DNA of 64,000 nucleotides from a virus. Location: positions 36,190 through 100,189 of the IMG/VR virus record IMGVR_UViG_3300028197_000962; one strand, given 5' to 3'. The notes under the pieces are model-generated. The model saw only the letters and a list, made by a program, of their open reading frames with translations, made no database searches and was not told the origin of the DNA. The position numbers and the translations under genes were made by a program. This document shows, piece by piece, positions 34,501 through 57,512 of this stretch; position 1 is the first letter of the stretch, and each line of letters opens with the position of its first letter.

Positions 34501-37500
34501 TCCAAATCCAACTTGATTGATTTTCACAAATTCGCCATCAACTTTTAGTAAGTCTCCACCAATGAATGAAGTTATACCAGAAAGTCTCATAAATTCTCCA
34601 CCAAAAGACATTTCCTCAACCAAAGCGTGCTCAACGTTGCCAGGAATAACGGGATCTTGAATATTGTTGTCAAGAGCAACAATACACTTGGTGTTTTGAT
34701 CTTGTGATAAGAATTGATGTATGGTTCCAATACCAGAAGTTGTTAGATTTAAATAATTTCCAACCGTCGATGAAAGTGCTTTTGATGGTGTTTCAGCAAG
34801 ACGAATTGATTTGTCATCAACTTTAATAGCGTACACATACTCAGGAAGTTTATCAGTGCTTCCATATCCAGCAATCGTTGTGGTTTTAATTCCAATTGAT
34901 GATGTCGTTCCAGAACCAGTTGGGTTATACTGCAATCTTTCACCAGATGCAAAGAAGTGATTTGGCAGTAAAATTAAATCTTCATCGGTATCAACAACCA
35001 AAGGATTACTGGCATCAAAGTCCTTACCAAAGATGCTAAATCCATCATGAGTTAACTCAAATGCTCTCTTAACATCTGCTTGTGTATTTGTATAAGATCC
35101 TCTAAAACTTTCAACTTTGGTGTCAAAAAGATTTAATTGGAAAAGATCATCAACACCACCCTTGGTTTCAGAAGCAGAAGTAATAAGAGTTTTGACTCTT
35201 ACATTTGTAAGAGGTGGCGCAACATAAATTACGTTATAGTTATTGCCATCAACAATAGCGGTAATAGTGCCAATACCTGAATTTTCAAGAATATTATCAT
35301 CCTCAATATTACCATATTGTGATTCATAGATGATTTTAGAACTATCGATCATGTAGATACCTTCAAGTAACTCATATCGATCATTAGTAACATCATGAAT
35401 GTTAATAAGGATATGAGCAGCTTCTGATTTATCAGTGCTATTACCAAAAGTGGCAATAGTAGTAATACCAGGAGATCCTGCTGATGGAATATCTGAATAT
35501 TGTGCTTGAAGATCACCAGTGGTTAGGTTGATTGTACCAATACCAAGAGTAGATACTCCACCTAAGAATTGTTGAGTAAAGATATTAAAACTAATACCAG
35601 TTCCAACTACACCTGCCTGAGGAGTTGCATTGAGATAATAAACACCACCAGAAACGTAAGAACTAAACGTTGCAATACCATTAATATCTGCTGCTACGGT
35701 GCTTTTATCTATATTTGACATATTGGCATACTCAATACCATATGTTAAATTATTATTGTGAAGTGAGTTGATGTTTAAAACTTCATAGTTAGACCCAGCA
35801 CTCATCTGCACTTGGAACTTATGACCAGCATCATATTGCGAAACTGGAATAGAGAGAATATTAACTGCTGTCGTAACACCAGGGTTAATCTTACTTCCTT
35901 TTGAAGCTACCTCAACAATATCACCAACAGTGTGAATACCAACCAATGTAGAAATACCAACAGCATGATGAATATCTCTGTCTACATTATAGACTAGTCC
36001 ACGAAGTTCAAAATCATTTGTGCCATAATCATTTGGATAAAATAACAGTTGACCTTCACTACCATTAACAACAAAATCAAAATATCCATTTAAGTCTTTT
36101 ATGCCATCCGTTATAGCATACTCTTGGATATATCCATTACCACCATCATCGACCATAAGTTCGACGATTTCCATTCTTCTAGTATCGATAAATTGCTTAT
36201 CGTTGGTTAAGATAAAATACTTTCTAAAACGAGTTCCTGAAAGTGCAAAAGTATCGACAATTTCAAATCTGGTTGCTCTTGGAATATTATTAAATTGATC
36301 AGATATGTTGTCAATTTTTAACACTCTATTGCCAACAGACTCTTCAAAATCTGCAATTGGAATGTTTCTTGTTATAATTTCATCAGAAAGGAAAGACCCG
36401 GAGATAAGTTTTGAATTTTCAGAAACAAAATCAAAGTCGTATCTACAATATGTTTCTAATTGAGTAATTAAGTCTACAAATAACTCAAGACCACTACTAG
36501 ATACCGATGCCTTATTGAAAGTTTCATCCCTAGATTCAATTTGTAAATCAGCAAATTTCTTAAATCCACCAGTATGATTCATGGAAGAAACAATATCATT
36601 CCAAGTATCATATGCAATTTGTGATTTTAGAGAATATGAGAAATATTGATAATAATCACTATCAATTATTCTTTGAGAATTTACACTTGGTTTACCAGTA
36701 TTTTTCTGCCACCCCAAAATAAGTTCTTCGACACCAACAATATCATAGAAAGAATTTACGTTAATCTTTTCAGACACTTTACCTATTGTCCCAGAACCAA
36801 GACCTCTTACAATATCACCAACAAGAACTTCTTTGATAACATTAACTTTTAGAATTTTATTGGAATTGTCCCAAGATGATACTTTTCCATTTTTTGATTC
36901 TAAGACATTTGTAATTACAATATCTTCATTGATAGAGAAGTTGTTTTTTACGAGATTTGGGGCAAAAATTGGGAAATCTTCAAAGGGAATAATTCTTCCA
37001 GAAGATTTCGTAGTTACATATGTTCCGGGATTGGTTACAGTAGAATCTAACTTATAAGTTACAGATCCAATACCACCAATATTCTCATCGACATTAGTAA
37101 CCTCAAAGAACTTGAAATTATAATCTGGAGAGTTATAACCACTTCCTTCTGATGAAATACCAATACCTTCAATGAATACTTTTTTACCAACTGAGAATGG
37201 GAAAGATGTAGATGTTGAGAATCCAATATTTAATTGAATAGTAACTTCTTTTGTAACTGTATTGAATCCAACAGTATTGATACCAACACCATTGGAGTTA
37301 TTGACAGTAATGATATTAGGAGCAACATCAGAAAGATTCTTAGCATTTTCCCTGATATTAATCTTGGAAATAGAACCGTTTTTAACTTCTGCTTGAAGAG
37401 ATACATTCTCAACTTTTTTGTTGGTGAATGCATCAATAACAACTAAATTAGGTTCAATATTATATCCATTGCCACCAGAAGAAATTCCAATACTACCAAA

Positions 37501-51763: not shown

Positions 51764-51796
51764 GAGTGGTTTGAGTGGTGTTCCTTTGACTCTTTA

Positions 51797-51855
51797 ATAA
51801 TACACGATTTTGGGCGTCACGCAACGGGGCTTAGACCTCTTTGGCGACTGTCACA
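51797..51855 (-). promoter_or_regulatory. Early promoter with upstream palindrome (copy 2)
   Basis: TGTGACAGTCGCCAAAGAGGTCTAA-6nt-TTGCGT-16-TATTAT; shares a 26-nt block with copy 3. Confidence 0.68.
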
Positions 51856-52557: not shown

Positions 52558-52737
52558 TTAATTAGTGACATATGTTTGCTTGATTGCATCGGTCTTGAAT
52601 CGTCTGCATAACTTGAATAGGAGTTTCAAGTCATCCTCAATCACATATCGAAACGAGTCAGATTCGATGATGAACTTACCATCTTCCATCCAGATTTGTG
52701 GGAGTTGTTTCTTGTAGATTGGGAAGTCAGTTGGCAT
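52558..52737 (-). CDS. Small hypothetical protein, below cutoff
   Basis: Manual translation MPTDFPIYKKQLPQIWMEDGKFIIESDSFRYVIEDDLKLLFKLCRRFKTDAIKQTYVTN. Confidence 0.65.
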   Translation of the reverse strand: MPTDFPIYKKQLPQIWMEDGKFIIESDSFRYVIEDDLKLLFKLCRRFKTDAIKQTYVTN

Positions 52738-52741
52738 GATG

Positions 52742-52849
52742 TTAGTTAGTGTGGGGTGAGTTGATAACTGTAACCCAGTTAGTTGGGGGTGATAGTTTGT
52801 TCGATACTTTCACCCAACGACCTTTGAAACGAACGAGAGTAAATTTCAT
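52742..52849 (-). CDS. 35-aa hypothetical protein
   Basis: Manual translation MKFTLVRFKGRWVKVSNKLSPPTNWVTVINSPHTN; fits the gap with 3-4 nt spacers. Confidence 0.5.
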   Translation of the reverse strand: MKFTLVRFKGRWVKVSNKLSPPTNWVTVINSPHTN

Positions 52850-52852
52850 TAA

Positions 52853-53125
52853 TCAACCCACACATGCCATGGGAGCATACTCAGAGCGAGGCATCTTGTC
52901 AACGTTGAAACCAGTAACCTCAGCACCTTTGGCAATACGTGAAGCAATCTCATGTTTGAAGTCAATAGCACCAATAGTGCTGTATGAGTTCTGATTACTG
53001 CCACGGAAATAAACACGTTTGACGAAACGACGAACGGTAACTTTCATTCCTTTGATGTCATCAGACTCAGCGATGAATGCCTCAGGGAAGAAATCAACGA
53101 CGACGGCAGAGTTTGAAATTTGCAT
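52853..53125 (-). CDS. Hypothetical early protein
   Basis: 90 aa, first gene after early promoter copy 3. Confidence 0.75.
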   Translation of the reverse strand: MQISNSAVVVDFFPEAFIAESDDIKGMKVTVRRFVKRVYFRGSNQNSYSTIGAIDFKHEIASRIAKGAEVTGFNVDKMPRSEYAPMACVG

Positions 53126-53149
53126 GTGGTGTTTTCCTTTGACTCTTTA

Positions 53150-53208
53150 ATAATACACGGTTTTGACCCCTGTGGGGGGATCAGTGGACACTTTGACCAA
53201 CTGTCCAC
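53150..53208 (-). promoter_or_regulatory. Early promoter with upstream palindrome (copy 3)
   Basis: GTGGACA-N11-TGTCCAC perfect outer dyad, -10 TATTAT, no clear -35. Confidence 0.72.
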
Positions 53209-53220
53209 CAGCGGTGGCAA

Positions 53221-53311
53221 GGGATCTGGGGATGATGTAAACTGATTTTTCGATATTTTCGTTTGAAACGGGTGTTACGTCATCCCCGTAACTCCCGATA
53301 TGGAAAAATCA
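53221..53311. ncRNA. Candidate structured non-coding element (nested stems plus pseudoknot)
   Basis: Three long complementary pairs found by hand in a gene-free gap (see findings); strand unresolved. Confidence 0.55.
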
Positions 53312-53321
53312 CTAAATGATG

Positions 53322-53468
53322 CTAACTTCCCACGATTGGATTGACTCCTATCACCTTTGCAGTAGGATTTCGTGCCAAAGCTGTCTCTCTGGCATCCTTA
53401 TGACTAGTAGCATGTACTTCCTCTTTGAAAATTGTGCCACCAACATACAACTTGACTTCCCATTTCAT
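53322..53468 (-). CDS. Small hypothetical protein, below cutoff
   Basis: Manual translation MKWEVKLYVGGTIFKEEVHATSHKDARETALARNPTAKVIGVNPIVGS; ATGA overlap. Confidence 0.72.
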   Translation of the reverse strand: MKWEVKLYVGGTIFKEEVHATSHKDARETALARNPTAKVIGVNPIVGS

Positions 53469-53683
53469 AGAGGTGAAAACAATTTAGTAGATGAGATGAT
53501 TAATAAGAAAGAGAGCATGATTACCACGTCCCACGATTTTGTTCTGATGAAGAATGGCACTGAGATAGCATCACCAATGAACTGCATAATCACTCCCAAT
53601 GATAGATTCACATGGAGAATGATGAAATATGCAGTGACCACAAGAAACGATCCTATGATTCTGCCAGCAATGTCAATCTTCAT
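53465..53683 (-). CDS. Small membrane protein
   Basis: 72 aa with about three hydrophobic segments. Confidence 0.7.
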   Translation of the reverse strand: MKIDIAGRIIGSFLVVTAYFIILHVNLSLGVIMQFIGDAISVPFFIRTKSWDVVIMLSFLLIISSTKLFSPL

Positions 53684-53685
53684 TA

Positions 53686-54588
53686 CTAAACATTTGCAAA
53701 CTTTTCGTTATTGAAGTTAGCACGAGAGAATTGAAAGCGATCAACGAGTTTAAACACACCAAACTGATTGATCATGACATAACCCTCGCCACGACATTGG
53801 CGTCCGTCAACATATGCTCTGGGACCATTGTTGCGACATAGCATCAGCATATCCATTTTGATTGATGCTACTAACTGCCACAAACGCAGCGTATTTACAT
53901 CGACTTGATTTGCATATGCAAGGGCATCAAGTGTAATGTCGTCGATGTTAAGACCTGATCGAATGATGCCATTGAATTGTTTTTGAAGCGATGCAGAATC
54001 CTTAGACTCCAAGAACTCACACGTGGTAGACATTTGACGTGCGAATGCAATCTTCTGACTGAAATCAGCATCAGTTACCCAACACTTAGGATGGACCCAT
54101 TTGACCTGATCGCTGTCTTTGTATGGAAGATATTGAAGAGGGTGAGCAACAGCATCACGCAGATCTTTGTCTGCTGTGTAGATTGTATGCGGTGCAATAA
54201 TGATAGTCTGATCGATTATCTCATCAAAAACATATGTAATAGTGTTAGGGGTATAAGTGTCATCACCTCCAATGCCAATGAAATCACCTTGAAGAATGCG
54301 ATTTGTTCGTGGAAGATTAGCAAAACAAGCATGGAGAATGATTGCTACCTCACCAGAATGATTCTGTTCGATCTCATCGTGCGAGTGATTGATCTTGATC
54401 TTGACTTTGTTGAACACAGACTTTGTGCCAACAAAGAATTTACCATTAGCAGGATTAGTACCCCAAACGATAGCGGGAGCTCCGTCAATCTTGACTGATA
54501 AGTGTGATTCTGCTGTGAACCAATCTAGAACTGAGAGATCACCCGTCAGGATGGAGTCTTCCGCGTGTTGGAGGTGTGTGTTTTTCAT
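53686..54588 (-). CDS. DUF6267-like protein with ATP-dependent ligase/nucleotidyltransferase motifs
   Basis: KIDG (motif I), QGDF, GEGYV, FKLV; KNTHLQHAED N-terminus. Confidence 0.8.
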   Translation of the reverse strand: MKNTHLQHAEDSILTGDLSVLDWFTAESHLSVKIDGAPAIVWGTNPANGKFFVGTKSVFNKVKIKINHSHDEIEQNHSGEVAIILHACFANLPRTNRILQGDFIGIGGDDTYTPNTITYVFDEIIDQTIIIAPHTIYTADKDLRDAVAHPLQYLPYKDSDQVKWVHPKCWVTDADFSQKIAFARQMSTTCEFLESKDSASLQKQFNGIIRSGLNIDDITLDALAYANQVDVNTLRLWQLVASIKMDMLMLCRNNGPRAYVDGRQCRGEGYVMINQFGVFKLVDRFQFSRANFNNEKFANV

Positions 54589-56040: not shown

Positions 56041-56100
56041 ATCATAGCAGACCCTTAGGCGTGTTGTGTGGATGAGTAGACCGGTTTGCGAGGTGGCACA
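56041..56100 (-). promoter_or_regulatory. Early promoter with upstream palindrome (copy 5)
   Basis: TGTGCCACCTCGCAAACCGGTCTAC, 29 nt upstream of -10 TATGAT (with TGn); no -35. Confidence 0.65.
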
Positions 56101-56104
56101 GTCA

Positions 56105-56233
56105 TCATGACCAGGAAGCGGGTTTTATTCTATTCCTATGATAAGTTTCCAAAGTTTCATCAAAACTATCATCCAACTTATCTTCTGTCAGTTTCAGAAG
56201 ATATTCAAGAATCATACGATTAGTAATTTTCAT
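56105..56233 (-). CDS. 42-aa hypothetical protein
   Basis: MKITNRMILEYLLKLTEDKLDDSFDETLETYHRNRIKPASWS; ATGA overlap with the helicase stop. Confidence 0.45.
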   Translation of the reverse strand: MKITNRMILEYLLKLTEDKLDDSFDETLETYHRNRIKPASWS

Positions 56234-57432
56234 CGGCGCACCACACTATCTAACATCTCACCCTTCTCGAAGACGGTATCAACAACCGACTGCAATGCTC
56301 GCTCGGTAGCAACACCAACCTGAGAGTATACAGGCACGACACACAAACCAAACGCCTTAGATTGGTTGCCTGTACGCAATACACGACCGATAGTCTGTGT
56401 CATCTCAATCACATCCATGTTGCGAAGGAAGATGACAGTTTCCAGTTCGCTGACGTTGATACCCTCAGAGAGAATAGAACGATGTAGAACAACAAACTTT
56501 TTCTCAGGATCGCGACCCCAAGCATTCAACGTCTCGAAGAATACCTCACGATTGACTTTCTTACCATCGATGACTGCACCCGTCTTCGATGTGATATAGA
56601 GGCATGAATAACCACGGATACCAAGATCTTTGGCAAAGTCAGTGTGTGCCATCAAGTTGATGAGTTGACGTGAAGTCTTGACACATACTAGAATCTTCTT
56701 TGTGTTAGTCTCATCAATTGTATCCATCACATTTTCTGAATCAGTCTCACACGAAATCATCCGTGAGTTCTTGTGAATATCAAACATCTTTGCTTGAATA
56801 CGAGGAGGGATGATGTATCCACCTTCTACCAACTCAGGAGCAGAAACACGGGCAATGATTTGACCATAGACTGCCTCATCATTCATGCCTGGTTTATTGA
56901 TAGTGATTGAAGTCTTGCGCGTAGCTGTGAAGAAGTAGCAACGATCTGCCTCATAAGAGAAGAACTCAGTGGGAGGGAAGAAGTTACGCTTAACGCTGTT
57001 ATGTGCCTCGTCAAAGTATATTGTGTTGACCTCAATGTCTGCCTCCATGATACGATGGAGAGAATTGTAGGTAGTGAAGATGATGACGTTCTCACCCATA
57101 CTACGGGCGCAACCTGCATACAGATGAATCTTATCTGCCTTAGTGGTGCTAGTGTAGCGTGTTTCACCACTGTGAACGTGCATCACATGCAGATATGGGT
57201 CACTGTTGTTAGGATCAATGATCTCCATAAACTCGCTGCAAAGTTGTTCTGCCAGCAGAATACGAGGAGCAACAACAACTGTGGTGGTGCCGTTGTTGAT
57301 ACTATCTAGACGATTCTTGGTGTCTGTGATCATGCACATTGTCTTACCACCGCCAGTGGGGACAATCACCTGCCCTTTGTCATAGGAACCCATACGATCG
57401 ACAATCCGTTGCTGATGGGGACGCAGTTGCAT
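56230..57432 (-). CDS. SF2 DEAH helicase (ResIII-like)
   Basis: LRPHQ (Q motif), PTGGGKT, DEAH, TAT, LSEGIN, QTIGRVLR; start at MQLRPHQ after the promoter. Confidence 0.92.
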   Translation of the reverse strand: MQLRPHQQRIVDRMGSYDKGQVIVPTGGGKTMCMITDTKNRLDSINNGTTTVVVAPRILLAEQLCSEFMEIIDPNNSDPYLHVMHVHSGETRYTSTTKADKIHLYAGCARSMGENVIIFTTYNSLHRIMEADIEVNTIYFDEAHNSVKRNFFPPTEFFSYEADRCYFFTATRKTSITINKPGMNDEAVYGQIIARVSAPELVEGGYIIPPRIQAKMFDIHKNSRMISCETDSENVMDTIDETNTKKILVCVKTSRQLINLMAHTDFAKDLGIRGYSCLYITSKTGAVIDGKKVNREVFFETLNAWGRDPEKKFVVLHRSILSEGINVSELETVIFLRNMDVIEMTQTIGRVLRTGNQSKAFGLCVVPVYSQVGVATERALQSVVDTVFEKGEMLDSVVRR

Positions 57433-57453
57433 GAAGATCTCTGATATGAATAT

Positions 57454-57512
57454 ATTATGGCATAAAAAAAGCACCCTGTCAAGGGTGCCCGACCAGTTCA
57501 TCAGCTGTCACA
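57454..57512 (-). promoter_or_regulatory. Early promoter with upstream palindrome (copy 6), -35 embedded in a hairpin
   Basis: TGTGACAGCTGATGAACTGGTCGG then TTGACA-17-CATAAT. Confidence 0.82.
57464..57488 (-). terminator. Rho-independent terminator overlapping the helicase promoter
   Basis: GCACCCT-TGAC-AGGGTGC-TTTTTTT. Confidence 0.8.

Follow-up and report, generated by a model that had tools for sequence, protein, structure and literature searches.

A palindromic cassette with a promoter-like core recurs in intergenic regions of T4-like cyanomyoviruses

The 35–150-nt imperfect palindromes known as ERIC/IRU, Neisseria Correia and REP/BIME elements occupy transcribed intergenic regions in either orientation, where they are co-transcribed as hairpins, and some of them carry promoter elements. 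Among T4-type phages, promoter-early stem-loops (PeSLs) have been described in RB49/phi1, PST and nt-1 (Arbiol et al. 2010, PMC2839356; Comeau et al. 2014, PMC4122927), and in their anatomy a sigma70 promoter preceded by an AT-rich tract is overlapped by a GGGG...CCCC stem-loop, with indels that arise by recombination (PMC2839356). A search for PeSLs in the cyanophage S-PM2 returned few candidate sites, which were considered an unlikely source of gene gain in that phage (PMC4503421), and on a described cyanophage element of such kind we found the PeSL papers only. Here, we analyzed an intergenic cyanophage element for which PeSLs appear, by analogy, to be the closest known kind.

Throughout, the window denotes the whole 64,000-nt stretch of DNA that was analyzed, which spans positions 36,190 to 100,189 of IMGVR_UViG_3300028197_000962, a 100-kb IMG/VR contig of a T4-like cyanomyovirus. 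The genes around the element all lie on the minus strand, and the element occupies most of a ~196-nt gap between the stop codon of a 48-aa ORF, for which no Pfam match was found, and the ATG (53125) of a 90-aa ORF (Table 1). The original prediction had placed a structured element in this gap (a non-coding RNA, a nuclease-blocking 3' end, a switch or an ssDNA signal), with an outer stem (stem B) enclosing a hairpin (hairpin C) whose loop pairs with a tail outside the stem, either as a pseudoknot or, through a longer helix that excludes hairpin C, as one of two states. All of these pairings were recovered by an inverted-repeat search: stem B over 14 nt (93%), hairpin C between 53269-53279 and 53287-53297 (11 nt, 91%), and the long alternative helix between 53228-53240 and 53275-53287 (13 nt, 92%). 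The 7-nt loop of hairpin C is complementary to 53229-53235, and the upstream stop codon (53322) and the absence of a U-tail had also been read correctly. The single G-U pair ascribed to the long helix holds on the plus strand, as described, but on the gene-bearing minus strand an A.C mismatch takes its place.

This arrangement is far from random. In 1000 dinucleotide shuffles of 53215-53321, in which 11-nt inverted repeats with at most one mismatch were counted, a mean of 0.04 repeats was expected versus the 3 seen; two or more arose with P = 0.001, and three were reached in 0/1000. In minus-strand RNA, stem B together with hairpin C amounts to -22.2 kcal/mol, and the minimum-energy fold, which is built on the long loop–tail helix, to -24.1 kcal/mol. 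As these values are nearly equal, the two exclusive states are energetically real. Moderate fold z-scores were obtained for the window's element, both over its 74-nt core (-3.3) and over the full ~200-nt gap (-2.9). A search with the Rfam 15 covariance models, which had been suggested along with the prediction, gave no family match (none relevant at E ≤ 10 for the window region and none at E ≤ 1 for four relatives). The element is real, non-random, non-coding, conserved and absent from Rfam.

BLAST of the gap against relatives revealed partial homologues of the element at other positions. A first search pattern, built from the eight first copies and with 21 positions fixed as invariant, matched 35 loci in IMG/VR and 51 in metagenomes. 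To offset the bias of that pattern, a second search specified the arms alone and left the interior unconstrained; it returned the same family, core and spacing again, along with more divergent interiors, and the span was always 63 nt. In total, the family comprises more than 55 distinct copies from IMG/VR, metagenomes and isolates, all of them in T4-like cyanomyoviruses, and the homologues anticipated in cyanophage and marine virome contigs thus exist. The family is present in 75 isolate records (Syn33, S-RIM12, ACG-2014a/b/g, S-MbCM100 and S-CAM8), where it usually sits immediately downstream of the UvsW-like helicase gene. The corresponding gap of the window (56046-56229; helicase gene at 56230-57501, minus strand) is devoid of the element, which is separated from the helicase gene by five others, among them those for a DNA methylase and a DUF6267 protein. 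Each genome carries one or two copies, and the 100-kb record that holds the window carries one. No family copy was found in 185,579 bacterial and archaeal genomes, which speaks against a host origin, and a covariance-model search of Syn9, S-SM2 and Bellamy, phages with published transcriptomes, likewise yielded none.

Read in the direction of the window's minus strand, family members consist of a short leader, a left arm, a 43-nt interior, a right arm and a tail. The arms, which form stem B and define the family (TTTTTCCATA and TATGGAAAAA), are inverted repeats of 10–14 nt with a fixed 63-nt span, in which a T-run plus CCATA on the left faces TATGG plus an A-run on the right. The spacing is strict despite widely differing interiors, whose only constant part is a 15–16-nt core with the consensus ATGAC(C/G)-N-AACAC(A)CC. 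In the right arm, the window has ATC for the ATG of its relatives, which produces a C.C mismatch in stem B. At L155:5108-5170 and L158:4314-4376, the arms again span 63 nt but enclose an unrelated interior; here, an array of TTGACT, 16 nt and TATAAT overlaps the left arm.

The tails fall into two types, type A of ~95 nt, which is highly conserved, and type B of ~38 nt, which is the window's form. A GG(N)ATGAC box forms a direct repeat in type-A tails and is inverted in the window's tail, where TTGCCA (53220-53215, minus strand) is a remnant of a -35 hexamer like the -35 of the neighboring cassettes. The type-A tail (…CAGGTCTTTGCTCTAGTGGTGGCAAGGGTTCTCAAG…CAGCATACCACC) is more conserved than the adjoining genes at L064:1590-1690 (Syn33), L065, L066, L071 and other type-A loci, and part of it is annotated as the 21-aa ORF Syn33_062, whose frame is not conserved; we regard this ~95-nt tail as a candidate small non-coding transcript. 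Beyond the window's tail lies a multi-copy promoter cassette that is separate from the element and contains a palindrome (53184-53208) and a -10 hexamer (TATTAT, 53155-53150), followed by a ribosome-binding site before the ATG of the 90-aa ORF. Its 40-nt promoter and ribosome-binding region (53126-53165) recurs 1.35 kb downstream, at 51775-51812, with 93% identity, and palindrome-plus-promoter cassettes of this sort occur in many cyanophages, often two or three per genome.

Table 1. Features of the element and its neighbors in the window, followed by the loci at which the core is flipped
Feature	Position	Strand	Remarks
Upstream ORF P0002, 48 aa	53322..53468	-	stop TAG at 53324-53322; conserved in relatives L004, L067 and L070
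122-nt unit (leader, palindrome and tail)	53206..53327	-	exactly missing from close relative L004
Boundaries of the 122-nt unit	53206..53327	-	short similar repeats CGTGGGAAG and GGTGGACAG
Stem B 5' arm, family left arm	53298..53311	-	T-run + CCATA
Hairpin C, CGGGAGTTACG / loop GGGATGA / CGTAACACCCG	53269..53297	-	window's clade only
Family core ATGACGTAACACCCG	53269..53283	-	conserved
Core in relatives, ATGACC-N-AACACACC			either orientation between the arms
-35-like hexamer ATGACG	53278..53283	-	4/6 match to TTGACA
-10-like hexamer GAAAAT	53255..53260	-	17 nt past the -35-like hexamer; 4/6 match; weak in this copy alone
Stem B 3' arm, family right arm	53243..53256	-	ATATGGAAAAA in relatives
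Tail B	53206..53242	-	contains an inverted copy of the GGGGATGA box (53228-53240), the predicted pseudoknot partner
Adjacent multi-copy promoter cassette	53126..53214	-	separate from the element; conserved in many cyanophages
Downstream ORF P0001, 90 aa	52853..53125	-	conserved in 60 IMG/VR loci
Flip loci after the UvsW-like helicase gene, one core orientation	L186:6395-6550, L172:4655-4810, L182:6700-6830		
Flip loci after the UvsW-like helicase gene, opposite core orientation	L080:5310-5465, L073:2492-2650		

Several other identities were tried and rejected. ARAGORN found no tRNA or tmRNA in the window, which disposes of these identities and of the idea that the ...ACCA tail is a degenerate tRNA-like sequence; the tRNAs that it did report were only neighbors of the element in two relatives, namely a tRNA-Leu(taa) ~105 nt downstream of the element start (L088:10019-10209) and a tRNA-Asp(gtc) that ends 13 nt upstream of the element (L082:394-545). 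A small ORF from the right-arm ATG (MEKTGLCSS... / MEKSVYDIP...) ranges from 6 to 108 aa, with one early stop and mostly first-codon-position changes, and an opposite-strand ORF is open in some copies and stop-interrupted in others. No site resembling an intrinsic (Rho-independent) terminator was present on either strand of 52700-53800; in relatives, a run of 3–5 U starts 4–5 nt past stem B. The cyanobacterial DnaA box has the consensus TTTTCCACA, which the arms match, in a comparison by eye, at 8/9 positions without the critical CACA; judged in the same manner, neither the arms nor the core contain a convincing NtcA box, Pho box or IHF site. An origin as a MITE or other transposon-derived repeat was also rejected, as inverted repeats are present but target-site duplications are not, and each genome holds only 1–2 copies. 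Moreover, the boundaries of the indel relative to L004 lie outside the element's inverted repeats, at sequence resembling a promoter-cassette palindrome arm, and hence nothing points to transposition.

Comparison across the family revealed that the predicted fold is conserved only in part. In a 30-sequence alignment, stem B was paired in 88% of cells and hairpin C in 47%. In a 52-sequence alignment, stem B was 89% paired, with 8 pairs invariant and 3 edge pairs changed on both sides, and its two central CC/GG pairs showed 26 unpaired cells and 0 compensatory changes. Covariation across the family is weak; RNAalifold returned no consensus fold for either the core or the 156-nt type-A region, and under relaxed RIBOSUM settings a fold appears whose inner pairs are weak and invariant. 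The inner helices vary from clade to clade and are either invariant or mismatched. Loop–tail complementarity exceeds that of shuffled tails in the window's clade only (z -1.7 to -3.0), with z ~0 in the other tail-B clades and no such pairing in type-A members. Hairpin C and the loop–tail pairing are both restricted to the window's own clade, in which wobble pairing on the minus strand survives three substitutions (two in hairpin C, A to G and C to U, and one in the tail, C to U), and a G to A change in one member disrupts hairpin C. Core fold z-scores are about -2 to -5 across the family and negative on both strands (-2.15 and -3.15); in the L073 and L080 clades, the family strand folds no better than shuffled sequence, and the evidence for a strand preference from G.U versus A.C pairs is mixed. 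Compensatory changes among homologues, chosen beforehand as the test of the fold, are largely missing, and the switch or pseudoknot reading thus largely fails: across 30–52 homologues only stem B is kept, mainly via invariant sequence, and hairpin C with its loop–tail pairing is a clade-specific by-product rather than a conserved mechanism. What survives of the predicted structured RNA is a real non-coding element outside Rfam, but not conserved nested stems, a pseudoknot or a two-state RNA.

The interior of the element reads as a weak sigma70-type promoter, with a signal that rises above shuffled controls family-wide and not in the window copy alone. Nearly all members carry ATGAC(C/G), then 16–17 nt, then an nAnAAT-like hexamer, at one fixed position on the family strand. 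The -10-like variants (TAGAAT, CAGAAT, GAAAAT, AAAAAT and CAGGAT) have an A at position 2 and a T at position 6, both of which are retained in the window's GAAAAT. The mean promoter score of the family was 7.84, versus 5.29 ± 2.07 for shuffled interiors and 1.93 for the other strand, in a comparison of related members whose samples are not independent. The window copy reaches 8/12 matches, below the scan threshold, and promoter matches of 9/12 occur at chance level in the window (68 found versus 66 expected). The conserved AACAC(A)CC would belong to the spacer of such a promoter, and a plain sigma70 promoter offers no reason for its conservation; L080b, L186b and L172b retain the core without a -10-like hexamer, and in the F variants the spacer is 19 nt long. 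In L088, the tRNA-Leu begins ~45 nt after the predicted start site, and the putative promoter of L073 and L080 faces the helicase gene, which it would read in antisense.

Close relatives further revealed that the element recombines. L004 is ~90% identical to the window here and lacks exactly the 122-nt unit, so that its 48-aa ORF is joined directly to the promoter palindrome, with the junction at the similar short repeats listed in Table 1. The ORF ends in ...PIVGS* in the window (53322-53330) and in ...PIV* in L004 (1415-1423); as the junction gives a different stop codon, the cassette boundary extends into the last codons of the upstream gene. At other loci, several unrelated upstream genes end in ...GTGTGA just before the element. 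Several relatives hold two copies each, and in L067 (3189-3272 and 4664-4747) the 5' halves of the two are identical while the 3' halves and tails differ, which indicates gene conversion within the genome. In addition, the 16-nt core ATGACCTAACACACCT is oriented oppositely in L186, L172 and L182 versus L080 and L073, between the same flanks and the same asymmetric arms, and both core orientations are common in IMG/VR. A core that persists whichever way it faces relative to transcription cannot be explained by a sequence-specific role as a cis-acting RNA, and the flips, together with the exact presence or absence of the unit, argue for a recombining regulatory DNA cassette rather than an RNA switch. 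Such flips recall invertons (fimS and the Bacteroides promoter invertons), in which inverted repeats also flank a promoter-like segment found in both orientations at one locus in related genomes. The cyanophage case likewise involves an opposite core between identical arms and flanks in related phages, but its interior of only 43 bp lacks the length that a recombinase needs for looping, flipped variants also differ elsewhere in the interior, and the arm asymmetries stay with the flanks.

We tentatively favor the reading that the element represents a single copy of a mobile, PeSL-like regulatory cassette, promoter plus stem-loop, specific to T4-like cyanomyoviruses, which we consider quite possible though short of probable. 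On the gene strand, the cassette would provide a weak sigma70-type early promoter, and transcripts would be expected to begin in the right-arm A-run. When transcription reads through from the gene upstream, a hairpin could form from the arms and from the G-run/C-run that surrounds the -35-like hexamer, and it may attenuate or insulate this read-through; both the promoter and the attenuator activity are inferred. A repeated palindromic cassette would also be a substrate for phage recombination, and being both repeated and palindromic would explain the exact indel, the gene conversion, the mosaic interiors and the core flips.

The likeness to PeSLs extends over several features. Both are ~100-nt intergenic cassettes of the hyperplastic region of the T4-like genome, with sigma70-like -35 and -10 hexamers, putative ones in the cyanophage case, overlapped by a stem-loop with G-run/C-run pairing and with an AT-rich tract upstream. 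In the window, stem B encloses the promoter-like interior, the -35-like hexamer is framed in hairpin C by CGGG paired with CCCG, and the relatives possess other G-run/C-run inner helices. Both are also repeated, conserved at the DNA level, located at indel boundaries of close relatives and found as recombinant chimeras; here, the 122-nt presence or absence relative to L004 and the paired copies of several relatives correspond to this feature. The cyanophage cassette differs in that the whole putative promoter lies within its arms, whose span is constant at 63 nt, and in that its 16-nt core reaches into the spacer and is conserved in either orientation. PeSLs are typically dense, whereas the cyanophage element occurs once or twice per genome and once in the 100-kb record; promoter and terminator activity has been measured for PeSLs as a kind. 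A Shine-Dalgarno sequence plus start codon at the 3' end of the element was found in helicase-adjacent relatives only (e.g. L186 and L182); in the window, the next start, at 53125, is ~120 nt off, behind the second promoter cassette.

The structured, cis-acting minus-strand RNA of the original prediction, in which stem B plus hairpin C alternates with the long loop–tail helix and which may, in such a model, act on the 3' end of the upstream mRNA or on expression of the downstream gene, appears very unlikely. The nearly equal energies of the two folds, the highly non-random inverted repeats and, within the window's clade, the three wobble-keeping substitutions and the loop–tail duplex scores all speak for it, but hairpin C is paired in less than half of the family cells, the loop–tail score vanishes in the other tail-B clades and the pairing is absent in type-A members, no consensus fold was obtained, and the G to A change breaks hairpin C in one member of the very clade that has it. 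Moreover, L004 manages without the element, and the core occurs in both orientations relative to transcription. A co-transcribed palindromic repeat acting only as an RNA hairpin, like ERIC, Correia or REP, is unlikely; its stem B may be a putative RNase III/E site or an mRNA-decay barrier between cistrons, or may display the core loop to a trans RNA or protein. Because the arms are inverted repeats, this hairpin forms whichever way the element points, which agrees with the negative fold scores on both strands, the high pairing of stem B and the edge pairs changed on both sides. The short gap at helicase-adjacent loci, where the element lies 34–44 nt after the stop and 9 nt before the next ATG, and the copies adjoining tRNA genes, which are processed transcripts, also suit a hairpin of this type. 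As with ERIC, Correia and REP elements, we observe a palindromic intergenic repeat that occurs in either orientation, with promoter elements in some, but the cyanophage element is phage-specific, of low copy number and without target-site duplication. The central pairs of stem B show zero compensatory changes, shuffled sequence folds as well as the family strand of the L073 and L080 clades, and a flipped core gives the complementary RNA, so that a sequence-specific RNA role of the core cannot hold both ways.

At the DNA level, the element could be a putative protein-binding site, that is, an operator or a recombination- or replication-related site for a phage or host factor, with arm half-sites six helical turns apart (63-bp span, ~53 bp centre to centre) and the asymmetric 16-bp core between them, which we judge distinctly unlikely. 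Such a site is consistent with the strict 43-nt spacing of widely differing interiors, with a core conserved in both orientations relative to flanks and transcription, with the GG(N)ATGAC box that is direct in type-A tails and inverted in the window tail, and with central arm pairs that lack pairing-driven covariation. The edge pairs of stem B that do covary argue against it, however, as do the missing tie of the element to an origin and the critical C positions that are variable or absent in the 8/9 match of the arms to the DnaA consensus. It is also very unlikely that the element is a functionless, decaying remnant of promoter-cassette recombination, possibly the former start of the small MEK... 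ORF minus its ATG, with a conservation that merely reflects recent spread. The ATC of the window in place of the relatives' ATG, a frame that runs into the next promoter, the dispensability of the element in L004 and the gapless alignments expected of young copies would fit a remnant, and the first search pattern did force 21 invariant positions; yet the arms-only search with a free interior again yielded the same core and spacing, the MEK... ORF is not conserved in length or codon pattern, and core and arms persist in both orientations across clades with unrelated flanks.

The PeSL-like cassette is the reading that we prefer. The conserved unit is palindromic DNA around a promoter-like core, and it resembles a regulatory module of promoter and hairpin more than a conserved RNA pseudoknot or switch. 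For the original prediction, the value of this finding is corrective, in that the pseudoknot or switch is not a conserved RNA device. It is conceivable, though on the unlikely side, that the arms and core together form a self-contained, orientation-independent device peculiar to cyanomyoviruses, either an exchangeable or invertible promoter cassette or a putative site for a phage factor, and that at type-A loci it also drives a highly conserved ~95-nt non-coding transcript. In the form of a promoter cassette, near-identical phages would differ in the direction of transcription, sense toward the next gene versus antisense into the UvsW-like helicase gene; in the form of a binding site, a phage factor would recognize ATGACC-N-AACACACC, for example as a box for a middle-mode activator, located near -30.

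A large share of the picocyanobacteria in the ocean is killed by T4-like cyanophages, and, to our knowledge, both the post-early gene regulation of these phages and the gene shuffling of their hyperplastic regions are poorly understood. The family described here points to a candidate box for promoter function or factor binding and, among relatives, to a candidate conserved non-coding transcript, and may extend the PeSL idea from coliphages to cyanophages. A conserved, recombining cassette with a two-orientation core thereby offers a concrete handle on post-early regulation and gene shuffling in these phages.
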